NCBI GenBank assembly: GCA_044228875.1
Contig: JBGAUA010000003.1
Coordinates: 8,401-72,400, forward strand
From: Anaerolineae bacterium
GTDB taxonomy: Bacteria > Chloroflexota > Anaerolineae > Epilineales > Epilineaceae
Direction of reading: 5' to 3'
DNA: 64,000 nt
Shown: positions 33,779 to 52,065 of the stretch, one piece after another
Numbering within the stretch: position 1 is the first letter of the stretch
Layout of the letters: every line of letters begins with the position of its first letter
The notes under the pieces: generated by a model
What the model was told of the DNA's origin: nothing
Databases searched by the model: none
The model's input: only the letters and a program-made list of their open reading frames with translations
Program-made: the position numbers and the translations under genes

Positions 33779-33811
33779 ATGGATCGGTGTTATTGTGTAA
33801 CACCGATCCAT
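33779..33811. repeat. perfect 14-bp inverted repeat with AT-rich centre
   Basis: ATGGATCGGTGTTA-ttgtg-TAACACCGATCCAT. Confidence 0.9.
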
Positions 33812-33864: not shown

Positions 33865-34116
33865 GCGAATCTCAGGCGCTGGGGGATGGCGAGGGCCGAA
33901 GCAAGCCGGGGAGACCGCGGCGGCGATGGCTTCCCAAAAGGAAAGACCGAGGGTCCGGCTGCCTGGACTCATGGCGCGCACCCCGCCGTTCCGCGGGCTT
34001 CGCGAGCCCCTCCGCCGTCCCTTTATGAACCTACAGGAGATTGGCCGCAGGGCAGCCACCCTGCGCTTCGGGCACGAAGGGGACCGGAATCGCGCCGACC
34101 TGTGGTACGGCCCTGC

Positions 34117-34740: not shown

Positions 34741-34925
34741 CCCCGGCCTCCGCCCTGCAGGGCCGAGCCCACCATCCCCAAGGTCAGCCAGGCTGCCACC
34801 GCCAGCAGGGTCAGTCCGGCCACCGCGTTTACCGCGGCCAGTCCCGCGCCGGCCACCCAAAGCACGGCCAGTAGCAGAAAAGCACCCACCACCTGCCGCG
34901 GGGCCCAGGCCAATCGCTCGTTCAT
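34737..34925 (-). CDS. small (62 aa) two-TM membrane protein, translationally coupled to the LysM protein
   Basis: MNERLAWAPRQVVGAFLLLAVLWVAGAGLAAVNAVAGLTLLAVAAWLTLGMVG. AAGGAG lies 8 nt upstream of ATG 34925. There is a 4-nt ATGA overlap with the next gene. Confidence 0.5.
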   Translation of the reverse strand: MNERLAWAPRQVVGAFLLLAVLWVAGAGLAAVNAVAGLTLLAVAAWLTLGMVGSALQGGGRG

Positions 34926-34989
34926 CCTTCGCACTCCTTAACATTGTGCTCTTGTGCAACATGCCGATCGGCTGGCATCCGACCAGGCT

Positions 34990-36423: not shown

Positions 36424-37439
36424 AACGCGTCCCGCCGCCGCGTGGCGCGGGTCGCCGGCGCGTCCAGGGCCTCCCGCCAGAAGCCCAGCCCCCATGAAAG
36501 ATGCATGCACAACAGGACGGGCGGCAGCAGGCACACGTCACGCAAGGCCGCCCGACGCCGCAGCTGCCAGGCGGCTGCCAGCAGGGCCAGCAGGTAGGCC
36601 GCCGGGAGCGTCGCCAACCAGAGCCGCAACGCCGGTCGGATGACGGCCAGGAACAGCGCCAACGACAGGAAGGCGACCCACAGCGCTGGCAGCAGCTGCC
36701 GCCAACGCAAGGAGCCGCGGTGCTTGCGCCAGGTGGCGGCCCGGCCCCGGCCGTAGCCCCAGTACTGGCGCACCAGGCCGGCGGCGCTGCCACGGGTCAG
36801 GGTGCTGCTGCGGATCGCCGGGTCCAGCCACACCGTTCCGCCGGCCGCGCGGATGCGCAGGGCCAGCTCGTAGTCCTGGTTACGCTCCAATGCCTCGTCA
36901 AAGCCGCCCAGGCGCGCGAGCGTCGCGCGCGGCCAGGCGCCCAGGTAGACCGTGTCCACCGGCCCCACCCCGCCGCGGCGGAAGGCGGCGTCGCCGGCGC
37001 CCAGAGGATGGGTCCAGGCCAGGGCCACCGCCCGACCCCAGGCCGTCGCGCCCCGCCCACGCAGACCCCCGCCCACGCAGTCGGCGCCCGTGGTATCGAG
37101 GGCCGCAAGGCAGGCCGTCACGTAGTCCGGGGCCGGCAGGGCATGGGCATCGAGGCGCAGGATCACCGCGCCGCGGGCGGCGGCCAGGGCGGCGTTCAGT
37201 CCCGCCGGCGTGCTGCCGGCGGCATTGTCCACCCAACGAATGGGGCAGTCCGCACACCGGCGCTCGTCGGCCAGGGCCACTGCCCTCGTCGCCCCGTCCC
37301 CCGGCAGGCCGGCAACGAGAATCTCCAGTCCCCCTGCCGGCCGCTCGCCGGCCAGGAGGGCGTCCAGGCAGAGGCCGAGGACCGCCCCAGCGTCACGGGC
37401 GGGAATGATCACCGAGACAGCAGGCGCCGTCGCGCTCAT
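36420..37439 (-). CDS. glycosyltransferase family 2 protein with C-terminal TM helices
   Basis: VSVIIPARDAGAVLGLCLDALL...ILRLDAHALPAPDY...FDEALERNQDYELALR. ATG 37439 overlaps the upstream stop (ATGA). The longer track ORF (to 38513) is out of frame with the real upstream gene. Confidence 0.85.
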   Translation of the reverse strand: MSATAPAVSVIIPARDAGAVLGLCLDALLAGERPAGGLEILVAGLPGDGATRAVALADERRCADCPIRWVDNAAGSTPAGLNAALAAARGAVILRLDAHALPAPDYVTACLAALDTTGADCVGGGLRGRGATAWGRAVALAWTHPLGAGDAAFRRGGVGPVDTVYLGAWPRATLARLGGFDEALERNQDYELALRIRAAGGTVWLDPAIRSSTLTRGSAAGLVRQYWGYGRGRAATWRKHRGSLRWRQLLPALWVAFLSLALFLAVIRPALRLWLATLPAAYLLALLAAAWQLRRRAALRDVCLLPPVLLCMHLSWGLGFWREALDAPATRATRRRDAF

Positions 37440-38680
37440 CGGCGACCGACCGCGATCCCTGATTGCCGCGGCGCCGCGGTCTGCGCGCGCCGGTAGACCG
37501 CGTCCGTGGCCCGCGCGGCATGATCCCAGGTCCAGGCCGCGGCCACGGCCAAGGTCTGGGATTCCAGCCGCCGCCGCCAGGCTGAATCGGCAAGCAAGCC
37601 GGCGAGGCCGGCCGCCAGGGCTGCCGGGTCTCCAGGCCGCACCAGCAAGCCGCCGCCGTCGGCAAGGGCCTCCGGCAGGCCGCCGACGGCGGTGGCCAGC
37701 ACCGCCCGCCCGCGGCCGCGTGCCGCCGCCAGCACCGCGCTCATGTCGATGTCGCGGTAGGGCAGCACCACCAGGTCCGCGGCGGCGAAGGCCATGTCTC
37801 GCTCCGCCCGCGGCAGGTAGCCGCTCTGGAAGTCGACCGCTGCCGCGCCGCCGGCCCGATCCACCCGCCGCTGCCAGTCCGCCAGGGCGGCCGCGCCGCC
37901 CGCCACCGCCCCACGGACCATCAACCGCGCCGCCGGTAGGCCGGCGCGGACCGCCGGCCAGGCATCCAGGAGCTGGTCCAGGCCCTTGTAGGGACGCACA
38001 TGGCCCAGGAAGAGCGCCAGGGGGACCGCGGGGTCGATGCCCAGGACCATCCGCGCGGTGACGCGGTCGACGGGCGTCGTCACCGGATCGGCCGGCATGG
38101 GCACGACGGTCACCGGTGGGGCAGCCGCTCCCAGAAGGTTCGCCATGCGCTGTCGCGAGACCTCGCAGTGGACGATCAAGGCCCCGGCGCTGCGGTAGAG
38201 CCGACGCCAGACCACGGCCTGGCCGGCATGCCTCTCGTGGGGCAGGACGTTGTGCGCGGTGTAGACCGCGGCCCGGCCGCGAGCCCGGGCGACGGCCAGG
38301 GACGCAGCATCGACCAGCGGCGCCAGGCTCCATTGCTGGTGGAACACGCCACCCCGCCCCCGGCGATTCTCCAGCCGCCGCAGGGCGACCAGTTCCAGCG
38401 GATAGGTCAGGAGGCGGGCCAGGCGGCGTGGCAACGGTCGCGATCGCAGGAGGCCGGCGGCCCGGCTCGGCCCGGACAGCCAGGGAGCAAAGGCGGTCAG
38501 GACCTCGGCGCATTCCGGAGCCTGGGCCCGGTCCGCCAGCAGCGGCGCGGCGGCGAAGGTGACACGCCAGCCGGCGCGCGTCATGGCCTCGGCCAGGAAC
38601 CGGTCGTAGTCGGGCACCTGGTGGGCGGGATCCACCATCAGCACCCGCCGGATGCCGGACGGCGCGGTGGCAGCGGCCAT
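37436..38680 (-). CDS. glycosyltransferase family 4 (GT-B) protein
   Basis: RVLMVDPAHQVPDYDRFLAEAM...VYTAHNVLPHE...VLPYRDIDMSAVLAAARGRGRAVLATAVGGLPEAL (E-x7-E-like C-terminal motif). Confidence 0.85.
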   Translation of the reverse strand: MAAATAPSGIRRVLMVDPAHQVPDYDRFLAEAMTRAGWRVTFAAAPLLADRAQAPECAEVLTAFAPWLSGPSRAAGLLRSRPLPRRLARLLTYPLELVALRRLENRRGRGGVFHQQWSLAPLVDAASLAVARARGRAAVYTAHNVLPHERHAGQAVVWRRLYRSAGALIVHCEVSRQRMANLLGAAAPPVTVVPMPADPVTTPVDRVTARMVLGIDPAVPLALFLGHVRPYKGLDQLLDAWPAVRAGLPAARLMVRGAVAGGAAALADWQRRVDRAGGAAAVDFQSGYLPRAERDMAFAAADLVVLPYRDIDMSAVLAAARGRGRAVLATAVGGLPEALADGGGLLVRPGDPAALAAGLAGLLADSAWRRRLESQTLAVAAAWTWDHAARATDAVYRRAQTAAPRQSGIAVGRR

Positions 38681-38687
38681 GGTCGCT

Positions 38688-39845
38688 TCAGCCTGTCCGC
38701 TCGGCCAGGATCGTGTGGTAGAGGGAGGCCAGCCGCCGTGCGGCATGGCCCGGCGAGCAATGCAGGCCGACATGGCGCCGGGCGGCCTCGCCCAGGCGGC
38801 CGGCTTGCTCCGGGTTGTCCACGAGGGCCAGCAGCCGCTCGGCCAGCTTGTCGGGGGAGCGCGGTGGGATCAGAAGGCCCGTCTCGCCGTCCTTGACCAC
38901 ATCCGGCACGCCGCCCACCCGCGAAGCGACCACCGGTCGCGACAGGGCCATCGCTTCCAGAAGCACCACCGGCAGGCCCTCCTGCCGCGAGGGCAGCGCC
39001 ACCAGATCGCTCGCGGCCAGGAGCGAGGGCACGTCGGCACGATAGCCCAGGAAACGCAGGACACCCTCCAGTCCCAAGGCCCGGGCCTGAGCCTCCAAGT
39101 CCTGCCGCAGAGGCCCGTTGCCGGCGACGAGGAAGCGGGCCTGCGGCCGGAAGGTGTGCACCACCTGCGCGGCGATGAGAAAGTCATCGATGCCCTTCTG
39201 CGGCGAGAGCCGCCCGATCAGGCTGATGACCGTGGCGTCCAGCGGCAAGCCCAGCCGGGTGCGCACGGCCTGGGGGTCATCGGCTTCGGCGGCGATACGA
39301 TCGACATCGATGACATTGGGCACCAGGACCACCCGCCGCTCGTCCAGACCACGCGCCAGGAGCATCCTGCTCTGGTCGCGGGAGACGGTGACGACCCGGT
39401 CCGCGAGGCGCAGGAGGAACAGATCGATGGCCCGATACAGCCGCAGGCGGCGGGAGGTGCCGGTATGCAGATGCACCGTGGCCACCCAGGGCAGGGCCCG
39501 GTCGGAGCGCCGCGCGGCCAGACCACCCAGGATGTTGCTCTTGTAGTCGTGGGTATGCAGCACGTCGGCGCCGCTCCCCTGCACCCGCCGGGCCACCCGG
39601 CGGGCCAGGCCCAGGCTGAACGGCCCGGGGTCTTCCATCTGCTCCGCCTCGAGGCCCCGCTCACGGGCGCGCTCCAGCCAGGGATGCAGCTCCGACCCGC
39701 CGTCCGGAGCGCGGTAGAGCGCCAGGATACGGGTGGCCACGGCGTAGTCCCGCAGGGCGTCCACCAGCAGCAGCAAGGCCTGCTCCGGCCCGTAGGACTG
39801 GGTTGAGCTGCGAACGTTGAGCACGGCCAGCGGCGGGCGGTTCAC
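38688..39845 (-). CDS. glycosyltransferase family 4 (GT-B) protein
   Basis: DVLHTHDYKSNILGG...GRLSPQKGIDDFL...VALPSRQEGLPVVLLEAMALSRPVVASRVGGVPDVV. GTG start in a GTGA overlap with the upstream stop. Confidence 0.9.
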   Translation of the reverse strand: MNRPPLAVLNVRSSTQSYGPEQALLLLVDALRDYAVATRILALYRAPDGGSELHPWLERARERGLEAEQMEDPGPFSLGLARRVARRVQGSGADVLHTHDYKSNILGGLAARRSDRALPWVATVHLHTGTSRRLRLYRAIDLFLLRLADRVVTVSRDQSRMLLARGLDERRVVLVPNVIDVDRIAAEADDPQAVRTRLGLPLDATVISLIGRLSPQKGIDDFLIAAQVVHTFRPQARFLVAGNGPLRQDLEAQARALGLEGVLRFLGYRADVPSLLAASDLVALPSRQEGLPVVLLEAMALSRPVVASRVGGVPDVVKDGETGLLIPPRSPDKLAERLLALVDNPEQAGRLGEAARRHVGLHCSPGHAARRLASLYHTILAERTG

Positions 39846-40999
39846 GCGGCGGCCCTCCGCCGATGGTCCAACGCCGCCAGCCAGTGGTCGTACTGGTCCT
39901 GGAGCGCCGCGGCATGCGCTTCGATGCTGAAGCGCTCCCGCGCCAGCGCCTGCCCGGCCGTCCCCATCCGTGCCCGACGGGCCGGATCCGTGATCAGGCT
40001 TCGAATGGCCGCGGCCAGCGCCGCGGGATCACGCGGCGGCACGAGCAACGCCGTGCTCCCGTCGTCCACCGCCTCGGCCACGCCTCCCACCCGCGTGGCG
40101 ACAACGGTCCGTCCCGCCGCCTGGGCCTCGAGCAATGCCAGGGGCAGGCCCTCGATGTCCGAGCCGAGGACCACCAGGTCGCAGGCGGCGTAGAGACGTG
40201 GGAGGTCGTCGCGCTGACCGAGGAACTGCACCCGGTCGGCCAGGCCGGCCGCCGCCGCGAGGGCCGGCAGCGTCGCGGTCAGGGGACCGTTGCCGGCGCA
40301 TAGGAGCCTCGGTCGCGGGAGGCAATCGGCCAACAGGACCATGGCGGCCAACAGGTCCGCGTGGCGCTTCTGGGGGTGGAGCCGGGCCGGCGTGAGGAGC
40401 AGCAGGTCATCGAGGGCCAGGCCCAAGGCGGACCGTGCGGCGCTGCGATCCTGCCCGCCGAAGGTCTCGAGCCGGATGCCGTTGGGCAACACCGCCACCC
40501 GACGGGGGTCGATGCCCTGGCGAACCAGCCAGGCGGCGTCGGCAGCGGAGACGGCCAGATAGCGTTGGCCGGGAAGGCGGTCCAGCAGCCGATCGGCCAG
40601 GCGGCGCGCCCGACCGGGCGCCAGGGGTCGGCAATGTTCGTGGGCGATGGTCAAGGGCAGGCCGGCCATGCGGGCGGCCAGGCGGGCATAGGGCGCCACG
40701 CGGCTGTAGAGCGGGGTCTGGACGATGGCTGCCCCGCTGGCACGCAAGGCGGCGGCCAACGCGAGCACCGCCCCCCCGTCGCGAGGGCCGCGCAACCGAC
40801 CCAGCACATGGACGGGAACGCCCATCGTCCGCGCCGCAGCCACCGAAGGGCCCTCGTCCCGGGCGCAGATGAGAACCGGACGGTAACGGGTGGGGTCGAG
40901 CCGCCGCCAGCCGTCCAGCGCCAGGCGTTGGGCGCCGCCCTGCCCGAAGTCCAGGAAGACATGGGCCACGGTCACCGGAACGCCCGGCACGGCGTTCAC
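39842..40999 (-). CDS. glycosyltransferase family 4 (GT-B) protein
   Basis: VAHVFLDFGQGGAQR...ARLHPQKRHADLL...VLGSDIEGLPLALLEAQAAGRTVVATRVGGVAEAV. GTG start in a GTGA overlap. Confidence 0.9.
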   Translation of the reverse strand: MNAVPGVPVTVAHVFLDFGQGGAQRLALDGWRRLDPTRYRPVLICARDEGPSVAAARTMGVPVHVLGRLRGPRDGGAVLALAAALRASGAAIVQTPLYSRVAPYARLAARMAGLPLTIAHEHCRPLAPGRARRLADRLLDRLPGQRYLAVSAADAAWLVRQGIDPRRVAVLPNGIRLETFGGQDRSAARSALGLALDDLLLLTPARLHPQKRHADLLAAMVLLADCLPRPRLLCAGNGPLTATLPALAAAAGLADRVQFLGQRDDLPRLYAACDLVVLGSDIEGLPLALLEAQAAGRTVVATRVGGVAEAVDDGSTALLVPPRDPAALAAAIRSLITDPARRARMGTAGQALARERFSIEAHAAALQDQYDHWLAALDHRRRAAA

Positions 41000-41403
41000 G
41001 AACGGAAGACCATGGCCACGCCGATGATGATCACCACCACGCCCAGGACCCGCTCAAGGGAGATCGTCTCCCCCAGCAGGTGGTGCGCGCTCAGGAGCAG
41101 CGGCAGGTAGCCCAGGGCCAACAGGGGATAGGCCCAGGACAGAGGCTCCCGCGACAGAACCCGGGTCCAGAACAGGGCGGCGACGAACGCGAGCCCATAG
41201 CCTCCGGTGAGCGCCGGAATGGTGAAGGCCTTCCAGAGCCCGGACAGGGAGAACTGCATCTCGCCGCCCATCTGGTTGGTGCCGTGCTTCATCAGCAGTT
41301 CGGCCACCTGGCCGATGGCGATGGCGACCAGCAGCAGCGCGAAGCTCCCCCAGCGTTGATCGGTTGGCATGGTTCTTAGGGTCTCCTGTGATTGCGCGCT
41401 CAC
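40996..41403 (-). CDS. small four-TM EamA/SMR-like (ArnE/ArnF-type) membrane protein, putative polyprenyl-phosphate-sugar flippase subunit
   Basis: WGSFALLLVAIAIGQVAELLMKHG...LSWAYPLLALGYLPLLLSAHHLLGETISLERVLGVVVIIIGVAMV (EamA half-domain pattern). GTG 41403 (GTGA overlap) or ATG 41370 as start. Confidence 0.65.
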   Translation of the reverse strand: MSAQSQETLRTMPTDQRWGSFALLLVAIAIGQVAELLMKHGTNQMGGEMQFSLSGLWKAFTIPALTGGYGLAFVAALFWTRVLSREPLSWAYPLLALGYLPLLLSAHHLLGETISLERVLGVVVIIIGVAMVFRS

Positions 41404-42158
41404 GCGACGCTGGATGATGGTGAACGACGCGCCGTGGCGATGACCGACAATCCGAAGGGCAGTCGATGGCCCGCGGCGATCCAGCGTCGCTCGACGTCGA
41501 GCACCGCGATCGCCAGCCGGTTTATCGGTTCTGGCGGGATGGTCAGGTCACGCGCCGGACCGGCCGGTGTGAAGCGCTCAGCGAAACGCCAGAGGATGGC
41601 CGCGCCGAGAAGCAGGCCGTTGGCGTAGGTCAACCGTTCGACCTCGAAGCCCGCCTGCCGCAGGCGATCCGCCAGCAGATGGGCGTTGTAGCGCTCGCGC
41701 GTGCCTACCTCGTCATCATGGCGGCCGCGCAGCCAATCATAGGCCGGCACTTGGATGAGCAGGCGCCCGCCCGGCCGAAGGATACGGTGGAATTCACGCA
41801 ACGCCGCCAGGTCGGAACCCACGGCCTGATGGTACACCACGTCCAAGGAGCTGACGCTGTCGAAGCTCTCCGACTTCAGAGGAAGCGCGGTGACCGTCGC
41901 CTGGCAGCGCTGCCGTATGCCGCGCCGCCCGGCCCAAAGGAGTGCATCGCGGTAGAGATCCACCGCGACCGCCGCCGGCGCTTCCGGCCGCGCCCGGGCC
42001 AGAGCCGCCAGCCAGCCGCCCGTGCCGCAGCCGGCGTCCAGCAACTCGCCGGGATCTCCCGTTCCCAGGAGCAGGCCCATGGCGGTCGCGCGCATGCCCA
42101 GGTACCACCAATGCAGATCCTCTACGCGGGCCAGGGTTCGATAGGCGGCTTGATTCAT
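41400..42158 (-). CDS. class I SAM-dependent methyltransferase
   Basis: HWWYLGMRATAMGLL...LLDAGCGTGGWLAAL (motif I)...FDSVSSLDVVYH...LRPGGRLLIQVP. Confidence 0.9.
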   Translation of the reverse strand: MNQAAYRTLARVEDLHWWYLGMRATAMGLLLGTGDPGELLDAGCGTGGWLAALARARPEAPAAVAVDLYRDALLWAGRRGIRQRCQATVTALPLKSESFDSVSSLDVVYHQAVGSDLAALREFHRILRPGGRLLIQVPAYDWLRGRHDDEVGTRERYNAHLLADRLRQAGFEVERLTYANGLLLGAAILWRFAERFTPAGPARDLTIPPEPINRLAIAVLDVERRWIAAGHRLPFGLSVIATARRSPSSSVA

Positions 42159-42231
42159 CGCTCAGAGATCTGCCTTGTCGCCGGGACCTGCAGGGGCTGT
42201 CGTGCCGGCTATCTTATCATCGCCCCCATCT

Positions 42232-42260
42232 TTGACCACCCTTGGGCCGGATCCTATAGT
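42232..42260 (+). promoter_or_regulatory. sigma-70-type promoter candidate (TTGACC-17-TATAGT) for the GT-C/GT2/FemAB/YdjC operon
   Basis: TTGACC at 42232-42237 and TATAGT at 42255-42260 with exactly 17-nt spacing, about 80 nt upstream of ATG 42342. The complementary strand offers TGGTCA-16-TAAGAT for the divergent methyltransferase operon. Confidence 0.55.
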
Positions 42261-42341
42261 CTGCGCGGTGGCTTCCTTCTCGCATCCAGCAGGCCTCGCC
42301 CGCTCTCGGCCAGGGCCTTCAGCTGTCTTCTCGTCGAAGTC

Positions 42342-44078
42342 ATGCTAGGGCCATCCCCTGCCGCGGGCAGGCGCTGGCTGCTGATCAGCCTCGTCCTGTA
42401 TCTGGCACTGCGCATCCTGGCCCTGGCCTCCGTGGCGGTGCTCGAAGACCGCGACAGCACGAGCCTGATCCGTGACGCCCAGGTCTTCGCCAGTTGGGAT
42501 GCGGCCCGGATCATCGACCTGCGCCCGGATGCCACGCCGCTCTACCCGCTGCTGACCGCTGTCGCGAACCGCCTGGGCATGTCCTGGGTCTTCGGCGCCC
42601 GCTTCGTATCCTGGTTGGCCGCCGCCCTGTTGGCCTTGGCGATGACCGGCATCGCGCTGCGGCTGGCGCCTCCTGACGCTTCAGGTCCGCCGGCTCCGGA
42701 ACGCTCGGCGACGGCACGGTCCTGGACCCTCCACGTCGCCGCGGCCGGCGTGGCGGTCATGGCCCTCAGCCCCACCTTGGTGGACCTGTCTCGCTCTGTG
42801 CTCACCGAGGGTCTGTACATCGCCGTGGTCTACGGTGGCCTGTGGCTGCTGCTTCGCCGTGGCGCCGCCCCGAGCCGGCGCGGCGCCATGCTTCTGGGGG
42901 CCGTCTTCGCCCTGGCATTCCTGGCGCGAACCGAAGGCCTGCTCTACCTGGCTGCCGTTCCCGTCATCCGGCTTGCCACCGCCTGGAGCGCGGACCGCGG
43001 ATCCGGCGGCAGGACGCGGTGGGTGTCCAGCACTCGCACCTGGCTGTCCTGGTCCGCCGCCTATGCCCTGGGCTTTGGGCTGCTGGCGCTGCCGCAGGTC
43101 TGGCGGGTGAGCCGGTCCATGGGGCAACCGGCATTCAACGGACGCCAGGTCTGGCAAGTCATCCTGAACCAACCAGGCGACAAGCCGTACGAGCAGAAGA
43201 TCTACGGGCTGGACCACAGCCCTTACCAGATCAACCTGGTCTACATCCAGAGCCATCCCGAGCAGGCGCGGCTCATGGCCGGCAACGTGGCCGGCTCCGA
43301 CCTTGTCGCCAAGGCCGCCGGCCTTGGGCGAGGCTTCCTGACCCGAAGCCTGCCCCGGCTCATCAGCCCGCTCGGCCTGCTGCTGGCCGCCCTGGGCGTG
43401 ATGGCGCTCTGGCAGGCGCGCCGCAGGGCGGACCTGGCATGGATGGGTCTCTTCCTGGGCGCCAGTCTGGCCGCCCCCTTGCTGCACGACCTGGACCCCC
43501 GCCACCTGGCGGTGTCCCTGCCAGTCCTCGCGCTCTTGCAGGGCATCGGCCTGGTCTGGCTGGCGGGTGCTTCGCCACCCGGTCTGGGGACGCCGCTCCT
43601 CCCGAAGGTCGCGGCGCGACCAAGGGTCGCGATGCGCGCGGCCTTGACGGTCGCGACCTTGGCCGGCCTGCTCTTGGGCATGCGAAAGGACCTGGCTTTG
43701 GCGACATGGCCGCCACCTGAGAGTCGCGACTACGCCATGGCCGATCAACAGGCGCTGCTGACGGCGCTCCGCCAGGCCGATTGGCCGAAGCCGGTGGATG
43801 GGCTGCGGATCACCGCCCGTCAGGGCTACTTCTCGCTGGCTGCCGGTGCCCAGGAAGTCTACCTGCCTTTCGCCGACTACGAGGCTTTGGTGACGTATTG
43901 CCGTTTCAACCAGGTGGACGTCCTTCTGCTGGAGCACGATCTCCTGGAACGCTACCCTTTCCTGCCGCGCTTCGCGGCGGAGAGCTCGCCGGACTTCATC
44001 CGCGTCCATCGCCACGTCAGCCCCAGCCATGGCCTCCTGGAGCTTTACCGCTTCAGCCCGCGCGGGGACGGATCGTGA
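42342..44078 (+). CDS. GT-C fold polytopic membrane glycosyltransferase (ArnT/PMT-like, GT39/GT83-type)
   Basis: Many TM helices, a first-loop acidic motif VLEDRDSTSLIRDA, and a periplasm/exterior-type C-terminal soluble domain. The track ORF start at 41466 is antisense to the methyltransferase and rejected; ATG 42342 is used. Confidence 0.75.
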   Translation: MLGPSPAAGRRWLLISLVLYLALRILALASVAVLEDRDSTSLIRDAQVFASWDAARIIDLRPDATPLYPLLTAVANRLGMSWVFGARFVSWLAAALLALAMTGIALRLAPPDASGPPAPERSATARSWTLHVAAAGVAVMALSPTLVDLSRSVLTEGLYIAVVYGGLWLLLRRGAAPSRRGAMLLGAVFALAFLARTEGLLYLAAVPVIRLATAWSADRGSGGRTRWVSSTRTWLSWSAAYALGFGLLALPQVWRVSRSMGQPAFNGRQVWQVILNQPGDKPYEQKIYGLDHSPYQINLVYIQSHPEQARLMAGNVAGSDLVAKAAGLGRGFLTRSLPRLISPLGLLLAALGVMALWQARRRADLAWMGLFLGASLAAPLLHDLDPRHLAVSLPVLALLQGIGLVWLAGASPPGLGTPLLPKVAARPRVAMRAALTVATLAGLLLGMRKDLALATWPPPESRDYAMADQQALLTALRQADWPKPVDGLRITARQGYFSLAAGAQEVYLPFADYEALVTYCRFNQVDVLLLEHDLLERYPFLPRFAAESSPDFIRVHRHVSPSHGLLELYRFSPRGDGS

Positions 44079-45130
44079 ACGAGCCCCTGCGCCGCACGGC
44101 GGATCAGCCGCGGCCATTCTCGGCGGCAATGGATGGGCCGCCGGACGCGCCGACGTCAGAGCTCCTGCTCAGCATCGTCATCCCGGCCTACGGGGAGGCG
44201 GGCAACCTGTTCCCGCTGTACGAGGAGATCCTGGAGGCGATGGTGGCGGTTCCCGGCTGGGAGCTGATCATCGTCGACGACGGCAGCCCGGACGACACCT
44301 GGGCGGAGGTGCGGGCGCTGAACGCCCGTGACCCACGGGTGCGAGGGCTGCGCCTCTCGCGCAACTTCGGCCACCAGTACGCCCTGTTCGCCGGCTTGGG
44401 CGCCGCCCGGGGTCAGGCGGTGGTGACGATGGACGCCGATCTGCAGCATCCGCCGGCAGTGATCGGGCAGCTGCTGGAGGAATGGCGCCTTGGCAGCAAG
44501 ATCGTCCACACCCTGCGCATCGACCAAGTGGGCATCAGCTGGCACAAAAAGCTGAGTTCGGCCCTGTTCTACCGGATCTTCTCCTTCCTCAGCGGCGTGG
44601 ACCTGTCGGCGGGCATGGCCGACTTCCGCCTGCTGGACCGCCAGGTGGTCCGCGAGCTGCTGCGCTTCCAGGAAGACGGACTCTTTCTGCGCGGCCTGGT
44701 CCAATGGGTGGGCTTCCCCAGCGTCCGGGTGCCCTTCCAATGCCGCGACCGCCTGGCCAACCGGAGCAAGTACGGCCTGCGCCGCATGCTGCGGCTGGCC
44801 GGCGCGGGCATCACCTCCTTTTCGGTCATCCCCCTGCGACTGGGCATCCTGCTGGGGTTGGTCACCAGCCTCTTCGCCTTCTACCAGCTGGGCGAAGCGC
44901 TCTACGTCCATTACGTTACCGGCCGCACCCTGCCGGGCTGGACCTCCACCTTCGGGGTGATGACCCTGCTCTTCGGCGTGATGTTCATCCTGATGGGCAT
45001 CCTGGGAGAATACCTGGGCCGCATCCTGCTGGAGGTGCGCGGCCGCCCGCGTTTCATCGTCGCCGATGCCATCGGCGAGCCGGCCGGGGCCGAGCCTCCA
45101 CCCGTCGACGTCCGCGGGGCGGGGCGCTGA
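44075..45130 (+). CDS. polyprenyl-phosphate glycosyltransferase (GT2; GtrB/ArnC/DPM1-like) with two C-terminal TM helices
   Basis: LSIVIPAYGEAGNLFPLYEEI...ELIIVDDGSPDDTW...RLSRNFGHQYALFAGL...AVVTMDADLQHPP...WVGF..., with a C-terminal membrane hairpin. GTG 44075 in a GTGA overlap with the GT-C stop; ATG 44129 is the alternative. Confidence 0.9.
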   Translation: MNEPLRRTADQPRPFSAAMDGPPDAPTSELLLSIVIPAYGEAGNLFPLYEEILEAMVAVPGWELIIVDDGSPDDTWAEVRALNARDPRVRGLRLSRNFGHQYALFAGLGAARGQAVVTMDADLQHPPAVIGQLLEEWRLGSKIVHTLRIDQVGISWHKKLSSALFYRIFSFLSGVDLSAGMADFRLLDRQVVRELLRFQEDGLFLRGLVQWVGFPSVRVPFQCRDRLANRSKYGLRRMLRLAGAGITSFSVIPLRLGILLGLVTSLFAFYQLGEALYVHYVTGRTLPGWTSTFGVMTLLFGVMFILMGILGEYLGRILLEVRGRPRFIVADAIGEPAGAEPPPVDVRGAGR

Positions 45131-45138
45131 GAGCCGCC

Positions 45139-46161
45139 ATGCGCACCATTCCCCTGGAACCCCGATACCGGCCGCAATGGGAGCGCTTCGCCACGGAGCA
45201 TCCCGCCGCCACGGTGGCCCATGACCTGCGCTGGGCCACCGTGGTCGAGAACAGCTACAGCCATCAGCCGCGGCACCTGATGGCCTTCGACGGGGACGCG
45301 GTGGCCGGCATCCTGCCCCTCTTCCTGGTGGACGGCGGACCCCTGGGCCGCAGCCTGGTGAGCAGCCCCTTCCTGACCTATGGCGGTGTGGCCGCCAGGG
45401 ATGACGAAGCGGCATGGGCCCTGGCGGAGGCGGCCAGGGCCATGGCCATCTCCCTGGGCGTGGACCATGCCGAGGTGCGCAACGACCGATTGGAGCCGGG
45501 CTTTGCCCACACCAAGACCCTGTACCATACCCTGCGCCTGGATCTCAGCGGAGGGCCGGAGCGCCTGTGGGCCGGTCTGCACGCCTCGGCGCGGCGCAAT
45601 GTGCGCAAAGCCCAGAAGGCGGGACTGGATCTGGTGGAAGGTCTGGAGCATCTGGACGCCTTCGTCGACATCAACCACCGCAACATGCATCGGCTGGGCA
45701 CGCCGGCTCATGGGGGCGCCTTCTTCGGCGAGGTGGCTCGGCAGTTCCCCCAGGCCCGGCTGCTCATGCTGCGCCGGGGGCGGGAAGGGGTTGGCGGGAT
45801 GCTGCTGCTGCCGCACAAGGACACCGTGCACATGCCCTGGGTGGCATCCCTGGAAACGTTCTTCGACCTGCGCCCCAACAACCTGCTCTACTGGGAAGCC
45901 ATCCGCGGCTCCGCCGAGCACGGCTTCGCCAGCTTCGACTTCGGCCGCAGCCGGGAGGACCAGGGTACCTTTCGTTTCAAGGTGCAACATGGGGGCTTGC
46001 CGGTGCCGTTGTACTACCAGTACCACCTGGCCAGCGCCAAGGCCGTCCCGCACCTGGACCCCAGCGCGCCGCGCTTCCGAGCCCTGGTGGCGGTCTGGCG
46101 TCGCCTGCCCTTCCCCCTGGCCCGCGCCTTGGGGCCGCGGCTGATCGGTTGGATCCCGTAG
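45139..46161 (+). CDS. FemAB-family (GNAT-fold) acyl/aminoacyl-transferase, EPS-locus type
   Basis: WERFATEHPAATVAHDLRWATVVENSY...AGILPLFLV...LVSSPFLTYGGV...ARRNVRKAQKAGL...HRNMHRLGTPAHGGAFF...VHMPWVASLETFFDLRPNNLLYWEAI...FDFGRS resembles the FemAB-related proteins found in exopolysaccharide loci. Confidence 0.75.
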   Translation: MRTIPLEPRYRPQWERFATEHPAATVAHDLRWATVVENSYSHQPRHLMAFDGDAVAGILPLFLVDGGPLGRSLVSSPFLTYGGVAARDDEAAWALAEAARAMAISLGVDHAEVRNDRLEPGFAHTKTLYHTLRLDLSGGPERLWAGLHASARRNVRKAQKAGLDLVEGLEHLDAFVDINHRNMHRLGTPAHGGAFFGEVARQFPQARLLMLRRGREGVGGMLLLPHKDTVHMPWVASLETFFDLRPNNLLYWEAIRGSAEHGFASFDFGRSREDQGTFRFKVQHGGLPVPLYYQYHLASAKAVPHLDPSAPRFRALVAVWRRLPFPLARALGPRLIGWIP

Positions 46162-46165
46162 ACCG

Positions 46166-47071
46166 ATGGCGAAGCCCGTGCGGTTTTCTCTGGCGGACCC
46201 TGCAGCGCGCCTGCTCATCGTCCACGCCGACGATTTCGGCCTGTCGTCGGATATCGACGCCGGCATCCTGCGCGCCCACCGCGAAGGAATCGTCACCTCG
46301 GCCTCCTTGGTGGCCGGGGGTGAGTCCTTCTCCGCCGCGGTGGCGGCGGCGCGGGACACGCCCACCTTGGACATCGGCGCTCACCTGACCTTGGTGGGTG
46401 AACGGCCGGTCCTGGACCCGCGGCTGGTACCTAGCCTGGTGGGTCCAGACGGGCGCTTCCACCGCCACGCCAACGGCTTCATCGCCCGCTTCCTGACCGG
46501 AAGGATCGTGATGGGGGAGCTGCGCGCGGAATTGGCTTCCCAGCTCGAACGGCTCCTGGCCACCGGCTTGCCCATCAGCCACCTGGACAGCCACCAGCAC
46601 CTGCACGTCCTGCCGGGGATCAGCCGCCTGACGGCCGAACTGGCCCGCGAACACGGCATCTCTTTCATTCGCCTGCCCCGGGAGCGGCGGCCGCCGGGTC
46701 GGGGATCTGACGCCGGACGGCTGCGGCGCCTTCAGCGCGTGGCCCTTCAAGGCTGCTCGGCCCTGGCACGGCGTCACGGGCCGCGCCAGGGCCGGCGCCA
46801 TCCGGATGCCTTCCACGGCTTCCTCGACGGCGGCCGCTTGGATCGGACAGCCCTGCTGCGCGTGCTGGACGCGGTAGGGCCGGGCCTGAGCGAACTCATG
46901 TGCCACCCAGGGCTGGGGGTGGCGCCCCTGCCCCATCACGTCGACTGGGGCTATCGCTGGTCGGCGGAGCTGGATGCCTTGACGGACCCGCGTGTCCGCG
47001 AGCGCGTGGACGCCCTCAGCCTTCAGCTGGTAGGCTACGGGGAGATCGGCCTTCGGCAAACGGAGACTTGA
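46166..47071 (+). CDS. YdjC/ChbG/HpnK-family carbohydrate deacetylase
   Basis: LLIVHADDFGLSSDIDAGILRAHREGIVTSASLV...DIGAHLTL...ISHLDSHQHLHVLPG are hallmark YdjC metal-binding motifs (D-D...H...H-x-H). Confidence 0.85.
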   Translation: MAKPVRFSLADPAARLLIVHADDFGLSSDIDAGILRAHREGIVTSASLVAGGESFSAAVAAARDTPTLDIGAHLTLVGERPVLDPRLVPSLVGPDGRFHRHANGFIARFLTGRIVMGELRAELASQLERLLATGLPISHLDSHQHLHVLPGISRLTAELAREHGISFIRLPRERRPPGRGSDAGRLRRLQRVALQGCSALARRHGPRQGRRHPDAFHGFLDGGRLDRTALLRVLDAVGPGLSELMCHPGLGVAPLPHHVDWGYRWSAELDALTDPRVRERVDALSLQLVGYGEIGLRQTET

Positions 47072-47159: not shown

Positions 47160-48173
47160 TCAGCCGAAGCGCTCGCTCCGCCCAAAGCGCCCCCCGAGGT
47201 AGTCGGCGATCCCCCACAGCACCGCGACCGCGTCGCGCCGCCGGCTGGGGAAGAGCCATCGCAGCGGTTGGCGCGCGGCCAGGGTCATGGTCTCCAGCCA
47301 GCAGCGCCGCCTCGCCGCCCTGTCGCCCCAGCGCCGCGCGAAGCGCAGGCGGTTGCGGATGTTGTAGTAGCGCCGTCGCGCCGGATCCGTGGCGGTGCCG
47401 GCCGACCCCAGATGCAGTACCCATGCCTGCGGCACGTAGCAGATCCGCCAGCCGGCCTCCCGGGCGCGCAGACCCCAGTCCACGTCCTCGAAGTAGAGGT
47501 AGCAGGCTTCGTCGAACGCGCCCACCGCCTCCCAGGCGCGGCGGCTGATCAGGCTGGCCGCGCCGCTGGGGTAGTCCGGATCCGGTGAATGGTCGTACTG
47601 GCCCTCGTCGGCCTCGCCTTCGCCGCGCAAGGCGGCGAAGGCACGTTGGCGGTCGACGGCGCCCCCGGCCCCGTTTAGGATGCCCGGTCGATCGCGATAG
47701 CCCAGCCGGGCCGTTGTTGCCGCGATGCGGGGATCCTCGGCGAGGGCTCGGGCGAGCGCTGCGACCGCTCCCGGCTGGACGAGGGCATCGTCGTTGAGGA
47801 TCAAGACGGCCACCGCACCCATGTCCCAGGCCGCCTGCCCGCCCTGGTTCACTGCTGTCGGCCAACCGCGGTTGTCGGGATTGCGAATGACCCGGATCCA
47901 CAACGGCGGCGCGTTCACACGGGGCATCGTCGCGTCATGGCGAACGCCGTCATCCCTCTCGTGTACCGCTGCGCCCCGCCCCTCCAGCCAGTCGCCCGTT
48001 CCATCCGTAGAGGCATTGTCCACCACCACTGCGCCGACGATCTGGCCCCGGAGCGCGCTCAGGACCTCCGGCAGGCGCTGGCGGGCGTTCCAGGCCGGGA
48101 TGACTGCCCAGACACCCGCCCCGGGCTCCGTGGCGCCGAGCGCGACATCGCCCGACCGATCCGTCGCGGTCAT
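47160..48173 (-). CDS. glycosyltransferase family 2 protein (rhamnosyltransferase-like)
   Basis: WAVIPAWNARQRLPEVLSAL...VVVDNASTDGT...VLILNDDALVQPGAV...YLYFEDVDWGLRAREAGWRICYVPQAWVLH. Confidence 0.85.
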   Translation of the reverse strand: MTATDRSGDVALGATEPGAGVWAVIPAWNARQRLPEVLSALRGQIVGAVVVDNASTDGTGDWLEGRGAAVHERDDGVRHDATMPRVNAPPLWIRVIRNPDNRGWPTAVNQGGQAAWDMGAVAVLILNDDALVQPGAVAALARALAEDPRIAATTARLGYRDRPGILNGAGGAVDRQRAFAALRGEGEADEGQYDHSPDPDYPSGAASLISRRAWEAVGAFDEACYLYFEDVDWGLRAREAGWRICYVPQAWVLHLGSAGTATDPARRRYYNIRNRLRFARRWGDRAARRRCWLETMTLAARQPLRWLFPSRRRDAVAVLWGIADYLGGRFGRSERFG

Positions 48174-49792
48174 GGCCCCGGCATCCCGCGGCCTGTCAAC
48201 CGCCGTCCCAGGTCGCCGAGCAGCGCCTGATCATCGTCGGTCAGCTCGCCCGAGCATCGCAAAGTCGCCAGGGCGGCCGCCGCTCCCGCCGCGCCGCTCA
48301 AGAGCAGCCCCGGCCAAACGGCCGGAAGGCTGGTAATCAGACCTCCGGCCACGAGCCCCCCGATCGCCGCCGCCAGAACCGCTCGGCCATCGGGGAACAG
48401 CTCCCTCGCGCGCAAGCCCTGCTCCAAGGCGAAGGCCGCCAGCATCCACAGCCCGCCGGCGGCCAGGCCGCCGGTCAATCCGCAGGCGACGCCCGCGAGC
48501 CCCCAGGATCGGGCCAGGTAGGCACCGCCCAGGGAGACAGCGGCCGTGCAGAGCCCAGCCGCCGTGCTATGCGCGGGTTGTCCGGCCGCCTGGGTGATCA
48601 AGAAGGCCGGCAGGGCCATGAGGGCCAGCATCCAGCCGGGGCTGAGAATCTGGACCGCTCGAGCCACTTCGGGCGCCGGATCGCCCCCCAGCCACAGCCG
48701 GCAGAAGGCCGGCGCCAGAACGGCCATCAGGCACCAGCCGGGCAGCACCAGCCGGCCGGTCCAGCGCCAGGCCCGGGCGTGCAGATCGAGGATGGCCTGA
48801 CGACGTCCGGCTCCGGCGGAGATGCCGTCCAGCCGGGCCGCGGCGGGAAAGAGCCCCGCGGCAGCGGCCATGCAGGCACCGCCGAACTGGCCCGTGATGC
48901 GCGCGGCGAGTTCGTAGGCCGCCACGGCGCCCAGACCGCTGGCCGCACCCAGGATGACCTTTGCTGCCGGGTCGATCAGGGCGCTGGCCAGGTTGACCGA
49001 CTGAGCATGGCTGCCGAAGCGAAGGAGCTGGGCGGCGACCACCGGCGACAGACCAGGACGGGTTACCGCCAGCACTGGGTTGACGCGAGATAGCTCCCGC
49101 TGGATCCATAGACCGGCCAGTACCGCCATGGCGGCGTTCTTCGCGACGAGACCGACGAGGCCTCCACCGGCCCAGAGCACCGGCAACACCAGCCACGGTG
49201 ACAGCAGGCGCTGGACCACCGCATCGATCAGGTTGACCCGATCCAATCGCCCGAGGCCCTCAAGGGCGGCCTGGCCGGGAGCGAACAGGCCTTCCAGGGC
49301 AGCGACCGCGGCGGTACCCAGGAACACCCAGCCCGCCTCCCGGGCCAGATCGGCCGGTATTCCGAAGCGGGGATCGATCAGAGCGGGCAGGAGGAGCGAC
49401 ACGAGTGCGATAACCCCCAGGCCCACCAGAATCGCGAGGCCGCGAGCGGTGGCCAGGGCCTGGACGGTGGCCGAAACAAGCGGATCGGCGCGCCGCGTCA
49501 GGGCCGCCTGCCGGCTCAGCGCCCGCCCCACGCCCAGGTCCGCCAGCCGCAGCAGACCGATCAGCCCCCCGGCTGCGGCCCAGAGCCCGAAACGCGCCGC
49601 CCCCAGCCGATCCAAGGTGAAAGGGGTCACAAGGAGGGCGCTCAAAGCGCCGATGACCACCCGACCGCCGCCGCTCAGGGCGGAGACCGCCAGCCGCGGC
49701 GTATCCGGGTTCGCGTCGCCGGAAGTCGAGGGCTGATCGGTCGACTTCTGTCGACCTGTTGACGGCGGGTCAACGGTACTGGGTTCTGGCAT
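48170..49792 (-). CDS. polysaccharide flippase (Wzx-like, MOP/MATE superfamily)
   Basis: About 12-14 predicted TM helices with Gly/Ala/Leu-rich composition. N-terminal pattern LVTPFTLDRLGAARFGLWAAAGG is typical of the 'polysaccharide biosynthesis protein' family. ATGA overlap with the downstream GT2. Confidence 0.75.
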   Translation of the reverse strand: MPEPSTVDPPSTGRQKSTDQPSTSGDANPDTPRLAVSALSGGGRVVIGALSALLVTPFTLDRLGAARFGLWAAAGGLIGLLRLADLGVGRALSRQAALTRRADPLVSATVQALATARGLAILVGLGVIALVSLLLPALIDPRFGIPADLAREAGWVFLGTAAVAALEGLFAPGQAALEGLGRLDRVNLIDAVVQRLLSPWLVLPVLWAGGGLVGLVAKNAAMAVLAGLWIQRELSRVNPVLAVTRPGLSPVVAAQLLRFGSHAQSVNLASALIDPAAKVILGAASGLGAVAAYELAARITGQFGGACMAAAAGLFPAAARLDGISAGAGRRQAILDLHARAWRWTGRLVLPGWCLMAVLAPAFCRLWLGGDPAPEVARAVQILSPGWMLALMALPAFLITQAAGQPAHSTAAGLCTAAVSLGGAYLARSWGLAGVACGLTGGLAAGGLWMLAAFALEQGLRARELFPDGRAVLAAAIGGLVAGGLITSLPAVWPGLLLSGAAGAAAALATLRCSGELTDDDQALLGDLGRRLTGRGMPGP

Positions 49793-49824: not shown

Positions 49825-50949
49825 TCAGGTGAGGATCCGCTCCAATGCCCCCTGGTCCAGAGCGGCGCGCAACTCCATGGCGATGCGCTCGCCCACAGAA
49901 ACCGGGCGGCCATGGAGGTAGGCGCTGTAGGGCGTGGCGACGATGCCCGGCGATCCGGGCACACGAGGGCTGACGTCCACCACGACAAAGTCCTTCTTGG
50001 GTGGTCCGGGCACCACAATGCTCTGCAAGGCGAAGGGCCCGATGACCCCCGGCGGGTACAGCTGCGAAGCGGCGGTGGCGAAGCGCTCACCGGCGGCGAA
50101 GATATCCTCCAGCATGCTCTCCAGAACGGTCACGGCAAAGTGACCCGCCTCCTCGTATTTCAGCGGAATGGCGCCGAGTACCTCTGCCTGAAGTTCGGCC
50201 GGAAGCATCGCCAGACCTCCGATGTTGGTCTGACGCCGAGCATCGGTACCCAACAGCTCGAGGCGACCGTCCAGAGGCGATTGAAAGAAGTTGAAGTTGA
50301 CCGGCGCCCCCAGGACATACTCCTCGATGGTGGCTTCGGCCAGACTGTCCTTGGTAAACACGCCTTCGTTGATCTTGGCGGCCGCCTCGCGTCGGTATTC
50401 GTCTTCGTCGCGGGCGATGAAGAAGGCTCGTTCGAATCCCCGCGCGTTCTCCAAGGCCTTGACCAGCACGGGGCGGTCGATCTCCTCCGGAGTGGCGAAG
50501 ATCAGCGGACGGCGGACGCTGGCAGCGTCCAGGAGGTCATACTGGTTGGGATGCTGGCTGCGCTCCTCGATGCGCAGGAGAAAGCGGTTGCCGAACATGG
50601 GCACGCGGAAGGCGTGCTCGATGGCATCGTAGTCGCTCTGCAGGTAGACCTCAAAGGAGCGGTGGGGGACAAAGACGGCGTGGCGCTCGACCAGCTCAGC
50701 CTGCACCTCCGGCAGCAGGATGTCCGCGAAGCGATCCACCACGATCACGTCGTCCACGCAGCCCCGACCATCCTGAGCCCGGTAATGCTCGGCGTAGGTG
50801 CGCTCTCGGCCCTTCTGGGCGATGACCAGGGTGCGGAAGCCGCCCAGGCGGGCGCCGCGGCAGACCTCCAGGGCCGAATGGCTGCCGAGAACGGCCACGG
50901 TCAGGCGCCCTTCGTCCAGACGGGCGATGGATTCCTTCAACCAAGGCAT
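49825..50949 (-). CDS. purP: archaeal-type 5-formaminoimidazole-4-carboxamide ribonucleotide (FAICAR) synthetase family protein, paralogue B
   Basis: VAVLGSHSALEVCRGARLGG..., VFVPHRSFEVY, RVPMFGNRFLLRIEER, IEEYVLGAPVNFNFFQSPL...LELLGTD.R.QTN, VIGPFALQS, VSVGERIAMEL. Collinear with the MJ0136-type PurP ATP-grasp enzyme. Confidence 0.85.
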   Translation of the reverse strand: MPWLKESIARLDEGRLTVAVLGSHSALEVCRGARLGGFRTLVIAQKGRERTYAEHYRAQDGRGCVDDVIVVDRFADILLPEVQAELVERHAVFVPHRSFEVYLQSDYDAIEHAFRVPMFGNRFLLRIEERSQHPNQYDLLDAASVRRPLIFATPEEIDRPVLVKALENARGFERAFFIARDEDEYRREAAAKINEGVFTKDSLAEATIEEYVLGAPVNFNFFQSPLDGRLELLGTDARRQTNIGGLAMLPAELQAEVLGAIPLKYEEAGHFAVTVLESMLEDIFAAGERFATAASQLYPPGVIGPFALQSIVVPGPPKKDFVVVDVSPRVPGSPGIVATPYSAYLHGRPVSVGERIAMELRAALDQGALERILT

Positions 50950-50971
50950 GGCGGGCGGTCCTTTCCGGGGA

Positions 50972-52003: not shown

Positions 52004-52065
52004 GGGTGGCTGCCGTGGGAGATCCGCCGGACGGGGGCAGAGTGTACCATGCGGCGGGATGGGCG

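Follow-up and report, generated by a model that had tools for sequence, protein, structure and literature searches.

A window of 64,000 nucleotides from the genome of an Anaerolineae bacterium (contig JBGAUA010000003.1, positions 8,401 to 72,400; 'the window' denotes this whole stretch) encodes a compact cassette that, in our reading, would build an N-acetyl-hexosamine on a polyprenyl-phosphate carrier, remove its acetyl group, attach an amino acid to the sugar and transfer the product to a surface glycan. All of the evidence is computational, and we give this scheme as a whole an even chance of being right. The cassette consists of four genes on the forward strand, which encode a polytopic transferase with the GT-C fold, a GtrB/ArnC-type glycosyltransferase of family 2 (GT2), a FemAB-like enzyme and a YdjC-type carbohydrate deacetylase, and of a gene in a divergent operon for a small protein with four transmembrane (TM) segments. 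An earlier note, made from the sequence alone, had likened these genes to the Lgm, Nax and Arn systems that decorate lipid A with amino sugars, and had proposed that the same logic operates here outside a lipid A context. A polyprenyl-phosphate GT2, a YdjC protein, a small flippase candidate and a GT-C protein can indeed all be identified, and the setting agrees with the proposal: the closest genome belongs to the Chloroflexota, and the window includes wall-associated genes and no lpx gene. The FemAB-like gene, which the note left unexplained, is the most informative part of the cassette. What we show below are the identities and folds of the encoded proteins, catalytic motifs conserved among their homologues, and a linkage of the genes that persists in relatives.

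A tightly coupled operon and its enzymes

Because the window is approximately 70% G+C, reading frames were chosen by third-position GC. The four forward-strand genes, the small four-TM gene and a promoter-like site all lie where the earlier note had placed them (Table 1), and the lengths and spacing of the four operon genes are reproduced by an independent gene caller on metagenome contigs that encode identical proteins; the same caller gives the small protein 124 residues compared with 135 as first called. The tight coupling of the operon can be read directly from the sequence: the GT-C and GT2 genes overlap in a GTGA (44075-44078), 8 bases separate the GT2 stop codon from the ATG of the FemAB-like gene at 45139, and 4 bases separate the stop codon of the latter from the ATG of the YdjC gene at 46166. 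The TTGACC-17-TATAGT element upstream of the operon is the sole sigma-70-like match between 40900 and 47300 (6.4 kb), where 0.5 would be expected by chance, and both of its hexamers are identical, within a conserved block, in Candidatus Epilinea brevis (L012; L numbers denote the related loci that were compared). Scans of the cassette for Rfam families, tRNAs and tandem repeats found none.

The GT2 carries a PF00535 domain (E 4e-28), finds its best NCBIfam matches in PgfS (E 1e-62) and ArnC (E 4e-39), and aligns with the solved structures of GtrB (5ekp, E 3e-59, full length over residues 30-334) and ArnC (E 2e-37). Two C-terminal hydrophobic TM helices are located at residues ~245-272 and 293-311. 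On account of the full-length likeness to GtrB and ArnC and of these two helices we assign the protein as a predicted polyprenyl-phosphate sugar synthase of the GtrB/ArnC type, in agreement with the earlier note. It has no HpnI match, and its score against the PpgS model is 19.5 bits where the cut-off is 370.

The last gene of the operon encodes a YdjC-type protein (PF04794, E 9e-67) with the motifs HADDFG and DSHQHLH and with no TM or signal-like segment, and is predicted to be a cytoplasmic carbohydrate deacetylase. Two better-known YdjC subfamilies were considered and rejected. Automatic annotation by the Joint Genome Institute names relatives of this protein HpnK; the protein scores below the HpnK cut-off (TIGR03473, 215.1 versus 232.6 bits), bona fide HpnKs in an hpnI-hpnJ-hpnK context are only 33-34% identical to it, and no gene for the radical SAM protein HpnJ is found in the window. 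As for the chitobiose deacetylase ChbG, with which the earlier note had feared the protein might cluster, the score is again below the cut-off (PRK02134, 132 versus 227 bits), identity to Klebsiella ChbG is 32%, and that gene resides beside chbA/C in the chb phosphotransferase system operon. The protein is 41-50% identical to YdjCs encoded beside GT2 and ArnT-like GT-C genes, and 35-50% identical to those found outside its closest clade beside GT2, GT-C or FemAB-like genes. In neighbour-joining trees 17 such context-linked YdjCs separate from both HpnK and ChbG in 47 of 60 bootstrap replicates.

These context-linked relatives recur in cassettes of similar composition. In Hydrogenispora ethanolica (L021, 4369-9738) the neighbours of a YdjC that is 47% identical are a GT2, an ArnT-like gene (PRK13279, E 1e-40) and, after these, a two-component system of the OmpR type; the arrangement resembles a classic lipid A hexosamine cassette under regulation, in a diderm related to the Firmicutes. 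An Armatimonadetes metagenome-assembled genome (MAG) has PMT/PMT_2, GT2 and YdjC genes together, and in two more loci near relatives of the YdjC that lie outside the GT-C family have GT2 neighbours. A separate observation concerns two unrelated loci (L022, 5620-7885, and L025, 5213-6795) in which two adjacent class I methyltransferase genes adjoin the YdjC gene; these pairs hint that the unmasked amine might alternatively be tailored by N-methylation.

A FemX-like enzyme between synthase and deacetylase

The protein encoded between the GT2 and the YdjC carries the Pfam domains PF13480 and PF02388 and passes the cut-off of TIGR03019, a FemAB-like family associated with PEP-CTERM loci (277.4 versus 260.35 bits). 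Its AlphaFold2 model (pLDDT 96.7) has a double-GNAT fold, and the 17 best Foldseek matches to this model are all aminoacyl-tRNA-dependent transferases, led by Sbb17 and Sba18 and followed by FemX, FemA and MprF. The structures of Sbb17 and Sba18 have been solved with the amino sugar streptothrisamine bound. A profile of the family finds the same aminoacyl-tRNA-dependent proteins at the sequence level (E 2e-14). Two adjacent residues, F280 and K281, show no variation among 25 homologues and align with F304-K305 of FemX_Wv and with the RFK of Sbb17; a recent review gives Lys305 of FemX as the catalytic residue and describes Orf11, a FemX-like enzyme, as glycylating streptothrisamine with Gly-tRNA as the donor (PMC12945691). 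From the modelled structure we are confident in calling the protein a FemX-type double-GNAT enzyme, and it is probably an aminoacyl-tRNA-dependent N-aminoacyl transferase that acts on the deacetylated sugar.

The same fold also admits a different chemistry, in which the enzyme would use an acyl-CoA and exchange the acetyl group for another acyl group, for instance succinyl, propionyl or hydroxybutyryl. Pfam places the protein under an acetyltransferase (GNAT) domain, the fold is that of a tandem GNAT, and Foldseek ranks 18-50 include acetyl-CoA-dependent tandem GNATs as well as a glucosamine N-acetyltransferase. We nevertheless consider this decidedly unlikely given that the 17 top structural matches and every sequence-level match in the PDB are aminoacyl-tRNA-dependent, and that no family member departs from the Phe-Lys motif of FemX.

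In otherwise unrelated loci, relatives of the FemX-like enzyme recurrently have as neighbours enzymes that generate a free amine on a sugar; two of these enzymes are non-homologous deacetylases. In a Geomonas PEP-CTERM locus (L024, 7147-9035) the gene overlaps that of a PF01522 polysaccharide deacetylase; in L066 (6001-8359) it adjoins a DegT aminotransferase gene near the exosortase genes EpsH/EpsI; in a planctomycetotal locus (L025, 7367-10089) it stands between a formyltransferase-domain gene and a YdjC gene; and in one further locus it adjoins a YdjC gene. The loci L024 and L066 have exosortase, EpsI or PEP-CTERM domains, of which the annotation of the window includes none. In the literature we found no reaction assigned to TIGR03019 proteins, and no account of a FemAB-like step in the synthesis of polysaccharides or of lipid-linked glucosamine. 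We tentatively propose, at somewhat short of an even chance, that the FemX-type enzyme aminoacylates a polyprenyl-phosphate hexosamine that the YdjC protein has just unmasked, and that this sequence of events, first a free sugar amine and then its aminoacylation from tRNA, is the unrecognised job of the TIGR03019 family in exopolysaccharide loci, including those with PEP-CTERM and exosortase genes.

The distribution of the genes among relatives bears on this proposal. Of 52 related loci collected, 23 were non-redundant and extended for 3 kb or more beyond the GT-C gene in at least one direction. These 23 loci come from at least seven phyla, and 22 of them have a GT2 gene no more than 6.5 kb away from the GT-C gene; a YdjC gene is nearby in ten, a FemAB-like gene in six and a methyltransferase gene in four. 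There is no family locus that has YdjC without GT2, and the FemAB-like gene is accompanied by YdjC in five of its six loci, the contig of the sixth ending inside the FemAB-like gene itself. The full order GT-C, GT2, FemAB-like, YdjC is retained down to 42% GT-C identity (L011), in keeping with the suggestion that the four genes form a conserved unit. This nested pattern fits a GT2/GT-C core whose product is subject to optional, successive tailoring.

A rival reading is a plain system of the Lgm/Nax type which places a free, positively charged hexosamine on its acceptor, the FemAB-like enzyme being a mere neighbour that serves some other pathway such as the building of peptidoglycan cross-bridges, the classical role of FemABX enzymes. 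Five of the ten YdjC-bearing family loci, and likewise the Hydrogenispora and Armatimonadetes cassettes, have GT2, YdjC and GT-C without a FemAB-like gene. In the window, however, that gene is inserted between GT2 and YdjC with gaps of 4-8 bases, in family loci where this can be checked it never occurs without YdjC, it belongs to a family of exopolysaccharide loci and not to the Fem proteins of peptidoglycan synthesis, and its relatives elsewhere adjoin other sugar deacetylases or aminotransferases. We therefore regard a free-amine product as unlikely. The earlier note had allowed for either a free or a derivatised amine on the envelope; the FemX-like evidence supports the derivatised, aminoacylated form, and the free amine is the less favoured of the two.

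Proposed transfer and flipping of the lipid-linked sugar

The 578-residue protein at the head of the operon has no Pfam match at E<=0.01, its best NCBIfam score is only 15.7 bits (an LA_3751-like family), and a profile search of PDB sequences returned neither ArnT nor any other GT-C enzyme. Alignment by hhalign with an ArnT-like protein gave a probability of 0.3%, and with single ArnT-like or unannotated neighbours all values were below 1%. The assignment comes from the AlphaFold2 model (pLDDT 82, pTM 0.84), for which the top 37 Foldseek matches in the PDB are all GT-C enzymes (STT3, AglB, ALG9/12, PglB, ArnT, AftA/B and Pmt4), and from its homologues, 8 of 18 of which carry PF13231. The first extracytoplasmic loop, after TM1, harbours an LEDRDS motif with invariant E35 and D38. 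When 1.84 billion representative proteins were searched with a profile, 157 representative clusters emerged at E<=1e-30, and the family is therefore small and distinct. On the strength of the model we assign the protein to a distinct family with the GT-C fold, and predict that it transfers a lipid-linked sugar on the extracytoplasmic side. The earlier designation as a GT-C transferase is thus upheld as far as fold and homologues go, the ArnT structure itself matching with an E of 5e-5, whereas sequence profiles of the protein support neither this designation nor membership of the ArnT/LgmB family. A side observation on this family is a further extracytoplasmic loop at residues ~250-306 (QVWRVSxxMGxxAINGRQVW ... 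YGLDxSPxQINLxYIQSHPE), which is near-invariant in 16 aligned members at overall identities down to 35%; it is conserved in members from loci both with and without donor-tailoring genes, and the family is present in several other phyla.

The best Foldseek matches of the model are STT3, AglB and PglB (E 6e-9 to 4e-5), ahead of ArnT, and we found no other gene for a ligase or polymerase next to the locus. The protein might accordingly be read as an oligosaccharyltransferase or ligase that moves the completed polyprenyl-diphosphate oligosaccharide of the divergent operon to protein or wall, while the GT2 product goes elsewhere. This reading was ranked low, and we consider it very unlikely. The WWDxG motif is missing (neither WWD nor WW[DE]xG occurs), the homologues match the ArnT/PMT-like PF13231 and not STT3, and TM-scores to oligosaccharyltransferases and to ArnT are alike at 0.5-0.6. 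Moreover, the GT-C gene is paired, often with overlap, with the gene of a polyprenyl-monophosphate GT2 in nearly every family locus, and in many of them with a GtrA- or EamA-like small gene; the combination of GT2, GT-C and small gene is the signature of systems that add monosaccharide side chains. The same pairing speaks against the possibility, raised in the earlier note, that the GT-C protein might be a protein O-mannosyltransferase in chance proximity.

The small four-TM protein had been described as ArnE/F-like, and it does have four hydrophobic segments and matches to ArnF (E 8.5e-11, 42 versus 99 bits) and ArnE (E 1e-6, 29 versus 92 bits), both of them below the cut-offs, as well as to EamA (E 9e-4). 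It is 90% identical in Ca. Epilinea and is related to the EamA/TMEM234-like small genes beside GT2 in other loci of the family, where either GtrA-like or EamA/TMEM234-like small genes adjoin the GT2. We regard this protein, in effect one half of an EamA-type drug/metabolite transporter, as a candidate flippase for the lipid-linked sugar. The 116-residue gene upstream of GT-C in the nearest non-Epilinea relative (L007) was considered as a homologue and rejected, since it shows no similarity and no family match.

Glycan locus, probable acceptor and proposed pathway

The cassette is embedded in a locus for glycan assembly (Table 1). The divergent operon begins with a class I S-adenosylmethionine (SAM) methyltransferase gene, a possible tailoring enzyme, and its first genes each overlap the next by 4 bases; the glycan assembly genes (34117-40999) are translationally coupled to the flippase-like gene, and the order of these assembly genes is the same in L012 and L007. 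Convergent with the cassette lie a further GT2 gene and a gene for a Wzx-like flippase, which likely belong to the same glycan locus. The glycan made by the divergent operon is the probable acceptor of the transferred sugar. A LytR-CpsA-Psr (LCP) protein with a single N-terminal TM segment may ligate this glycan to peptidoglycan. The earlier note had placed the cassette next to an LCP ligase region; the gene exists, but its linkage is loose: the glycan operon is ~4.6 kb away and the GT-C gene ~12 kb, and a helicase gene intervenes. Between the helicase and LysM genes, ~1 kb (33085-34116) is devoid of a convincing open reading frame (ORF), Rfam match or repeat.

Table 1. Positions of the cassette genes and of the neighbouring glycan genes in the window
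Feature	Position	Strand	Remarks
GT-C gene	42342-44078	+	578 aa
GtrB/ArnC-type GT2 gene	44075-45130	+	351 aa
FemAB-like (FemX-like) gene	45139-46161	+	340 aa
YdjC gene	46166-47071	+	301 aa; last in operon
Sigma-70-like promoter TTGACC-17-TATAGT	42232-42260	+	in the 183-bp divergent intergenic region
Class I SAM methyltransferase	41400-42158	-	first gene of divergent operon; Methyltransf_23/11/25
Small four-TM protein gene	40996-41403	-	in divergent operon
GT4	39842-40999	-	Pfam
GT4	38688-39845	-	Pfam
GT4	37436-38773	-	Pfam
GT2 of divergent operon	36420-37469	-	recovered by tblastn
Polyisoprenyl-phosphate sugar transferase (phosphoglycosyl transferase, PGT)	34990-36534	-	Pfam
LysM membrane protein	34117-34962	-	Pfam
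LCP protein	29176-30432	+	PF03816, E 2e-35
Convergent GT2	47160-48173	-	Pfam; conserved in L012, L027
Wzx-like polysaccharide flippase	48170-49792	-	Pfam; conserved in L012, L027, L031

The closest genome is a MAG of Candidatus Epilinea brevis, a member of the Chloroflexota, with 69-93% amino-acid identity over 13 syntenic genes, and it is this affiliation that makes a target other than lipid A plausible. The window has the LCP and LysM genes, and its annotation includes no lpx, lpt, waa, bam or TonB-receptor gene; according to 10.1101/2025.08.19.671072, the Chloroflexota are increasingly seen as monoderms without a true outer membrane. On these grounds together an acceptor other than lipid A is plausible. 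Were the lineage or the donor of the cassette a diderm, the target could instead be lipid A or some other outer-membrane glycolipid. Both the GT-C family and the GT2/YdjC cassette are widespread in diderms (Gemmatimonadota, Thermodesulfobacteriota, Ignavibacteriales, Sulfurimonas), and in Hydrogenispora the YdjC cassette is accompanied by an ArnT-like gene and a two-component system. Set against the chloroflexotal affinity of the genome, the wall-associated genes and the outer-membrane genes missing from the window, we judge a lipid A target to be the least probable of the alternatives, and highly improbable in itself.

We propose that the pathway would run as follows. At the cytoplasmic face, the GtrB/ArnC-type GT2 would load polyprenyl phosphate with an N-acetyl-hexosamine taken from a nucleotide sugar, and the cytoplasmic YdjC protein would strip off the acetyl group and expose a free amine, as NaxD and LgmC do. 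The FemX-like enzyme would then place an amino acid from aminoacyl-tRNA onto this amine, still in the cytoplasm, and the product may be further modified by the adjacent methyltransferase. Aminoacyl-tRNA is confined to the cytoplasm, and tailoring must for this reason precede flipping, for which the small ArnE/F-like protein would be responsible. Outside the membrane the GT-C protein would transfer the sugar onto the glycan produced by the divergent operon with its PGT, three GT4s, GT2 and Wzx-like protein, and the glycan might finally be attached to the wall by the LCP ligase. The likely product is an N-aminoacyl-hexosamine side group on this glycan. In this sequence we infer the identity of the sugar, the order of deacetylation and aminoacylation, the lipid-linked as opposed to nucleotide-linked stage at which they occur, the dependence on tRNA, the amino acid and the acceptor.

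Several points weigh against this pathway. The support for every step is computational and not biochemical. The flippase-like protein falls below every curated cut-off, and its gene is missing from L007, where the gene upstream of GT-C is the unrelated one described above. At the level of sequence the GT-C protein matches neither ArnT nor any other GT-C enzyme of solved structure, and its donor and acceptor cannot be read from the fold because the best fold matches are oligosaccharyltransferases. One relative of the FemX-like enzyme, in L067, lacks an amine-generating neighbour within 6 kb. The window yielded no Wzy-type polymerase, and the absence of lipid A genes covers these 64 kb only. Finally, the GT-C family also occurs in diderm phyla, and its acceptor therefore need not be specific to monoderm walls.

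A number of features elsewhere in the window deserve mention in their own right. At its left edge (13-2124, forward strand) lies a second glycan locus, with the C-terminal fragment of a GT2 and a second phosphoglycosyl transferase of the Bac_transf type. It is followed by a flavin mononucleotide (FMN) riboswitch (2235-2430, forward strand), which at 82 bits exceeds the gathering score and precedes a ribD/ribE/ribBA/ribH operon; since the ribD start as mechanically called, at 2386, falls inside the riboswitch, the true start probably lies further downstream. A sigma-54-dependent response regulator gene is directly followed by the gene for sigma-54 itself (10620-13655, forward strand). The region 15121-22937 encodes a 1357-aa protein with CotH kinase, lamin-tail and chitobiase C-terminal domains, and adjoining it a 1175-aa S8 subtilase with a PA domain. 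To the right of the cassette, two tandem PurP-type genes stand beside purD (49825-53409, reverse strand); their DUF1246 and DUF1297 domains denote the archaeal-type family of 5-formamidoimidazole-4-carboxamide ribonucleotide (FAICAR) synthetases, here in a bacterial genome. A 1622-aa ORF (56851-61719, forward strand) has coding-like third-position GC and no Pfam match.

Implications and relation to known systems

If the proposal is correct, a surface glycan of this chloroflexotal bacterium bears an N-aminoacyl-hexosamine, and tRNA gains a new role in the building of envelope glycans. The decoration of envelope polymers with amino sugars from a lipid carrier, a route that serves lipid A and mycobacterial arabinogalactan, would extend to this phylum, and the YdjC protein would put a name to the deacetylation step that is unassigned in the mycobacterial and corynebacterial pathway. 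A widespread FemAB-like family that at present has only a context-based name would acquire a testable reaction, and a GT-C family of ~157 clusters, missed by current Pfam models, would be defined. For the filamentous Chloroflexota this would imply that the surface is modified with charged or zwitterionic groups; activated-sludge metagenomes are the source of the relatives, and in that setting surface chemistry affects flocculation.

Among the closest known systems are those for hexosamine on lipid A, Bordetella LgmABC(D) and FlmF2-NaxD-FlmK of Francisella and Acinetobacter. In these too, a polyprenyl-phosphate GT2, a YdjC protein and a GT-C transferase are encoded together, lipid-linked N-acetyl-hexosamine is inferred to be deacetylated there as it is here, and the YdjC of the window groups with YdjCs encoded beside ArnT-like genes. 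Unlike these systems, the cassette resides in a chloroflexotal host with no lpx gene in view, its GT-C protein appears to belong to another sequence family than ArnT and LgmB, it includes a FemX-like enzyme and a methyltransferase as well, and the whole is part of a glycan locus with PGT, GT4 and Wzx genes. The ArnC/D/E/F/T system, which modifies lipid A with 4-amino-4-deoxy-L-arabinose, resembles the cassette in its GT2, in the small protein with likeness to ArnF and ArnE, in the presence of a GT-C transferase and in the removal of an N-acyl group on the lipid carrier before flipping. In contrast to Arn, the predicted deacylase is of the YdjC type and not a PF01522-type ArnD, no homologue of ArnA, ArnB or ArnD is annotated in the window, and the NCBIfam scores stay below the cut-offs, that of ArnC with 134 versus 529 bits.

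Three-component systems of Gram-positive bacteria (CsbB/GtlA with GtcA and YfhO/GtlB, and GacI/GacL) and the phage GtrABC systems offer a second precedent (PMC7389260, PMC8035078). They share the core of GT2, small four-TM flippase (in the window a candidate) and GT-C transferase that decorates an extracytoplasmic polymer in a monoderm, and relatives of the window family carry true GtrA-like genes. These systems transfer unmodified glucose, galactose or N-acetylglucosamine, and none of them includes the deacetylase or Fem-like tailoring encoded in the window.

In Mycobacterium and Corynebacterium, PpgS, Rv3632 and Rv3779 make a polyprenyl-phosphate N-acetyl-hexosamine that is deacetylated and transferred by a GT-C enzyme as galactosamine to arabinogalactan (PMC9671496). 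This is the precedent for a target other than lipid A; the deacetylase and flippase of that pathway are 'as yet unidentified' (PMC9671496), whereas the operon described here includes a YdjC gene. The GT2 of the window, for its part, is not PpgS-like by score. We know of no Fem-like step in the PpgS-Rv3632-Rv3779 system.

The FemX-like enzyme has its closest known counterparts in Orf11, Sba18 and Sbb17 of the streptothricin-type antibiotics, with which it has the double-GNAT fold and the catalytic Phe-Lys pair in common; the substrate of enzymes of the Orf11 type is a soluble intermediate of an antibiotic, unlike the lipid-linked one proposed here. Within the TIGR03019 family the protein passes the cut-off in a window that has neither an exosortase nor a PEP-CTERM gene. 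Judged by sequence, then, the cassette falls outside the Arn, HpnK, ChbG and PpgS families. Targets beyond lipid A are already known for this logic, for example galactosamine on mycobacterial arabinogalactan and the glycosylation of teichoic acids; the novel features are that these genes are combined in a monoderm phylum, that the GT-C protein is of a distinct family and that a FemX-like tailoring step is proposed.

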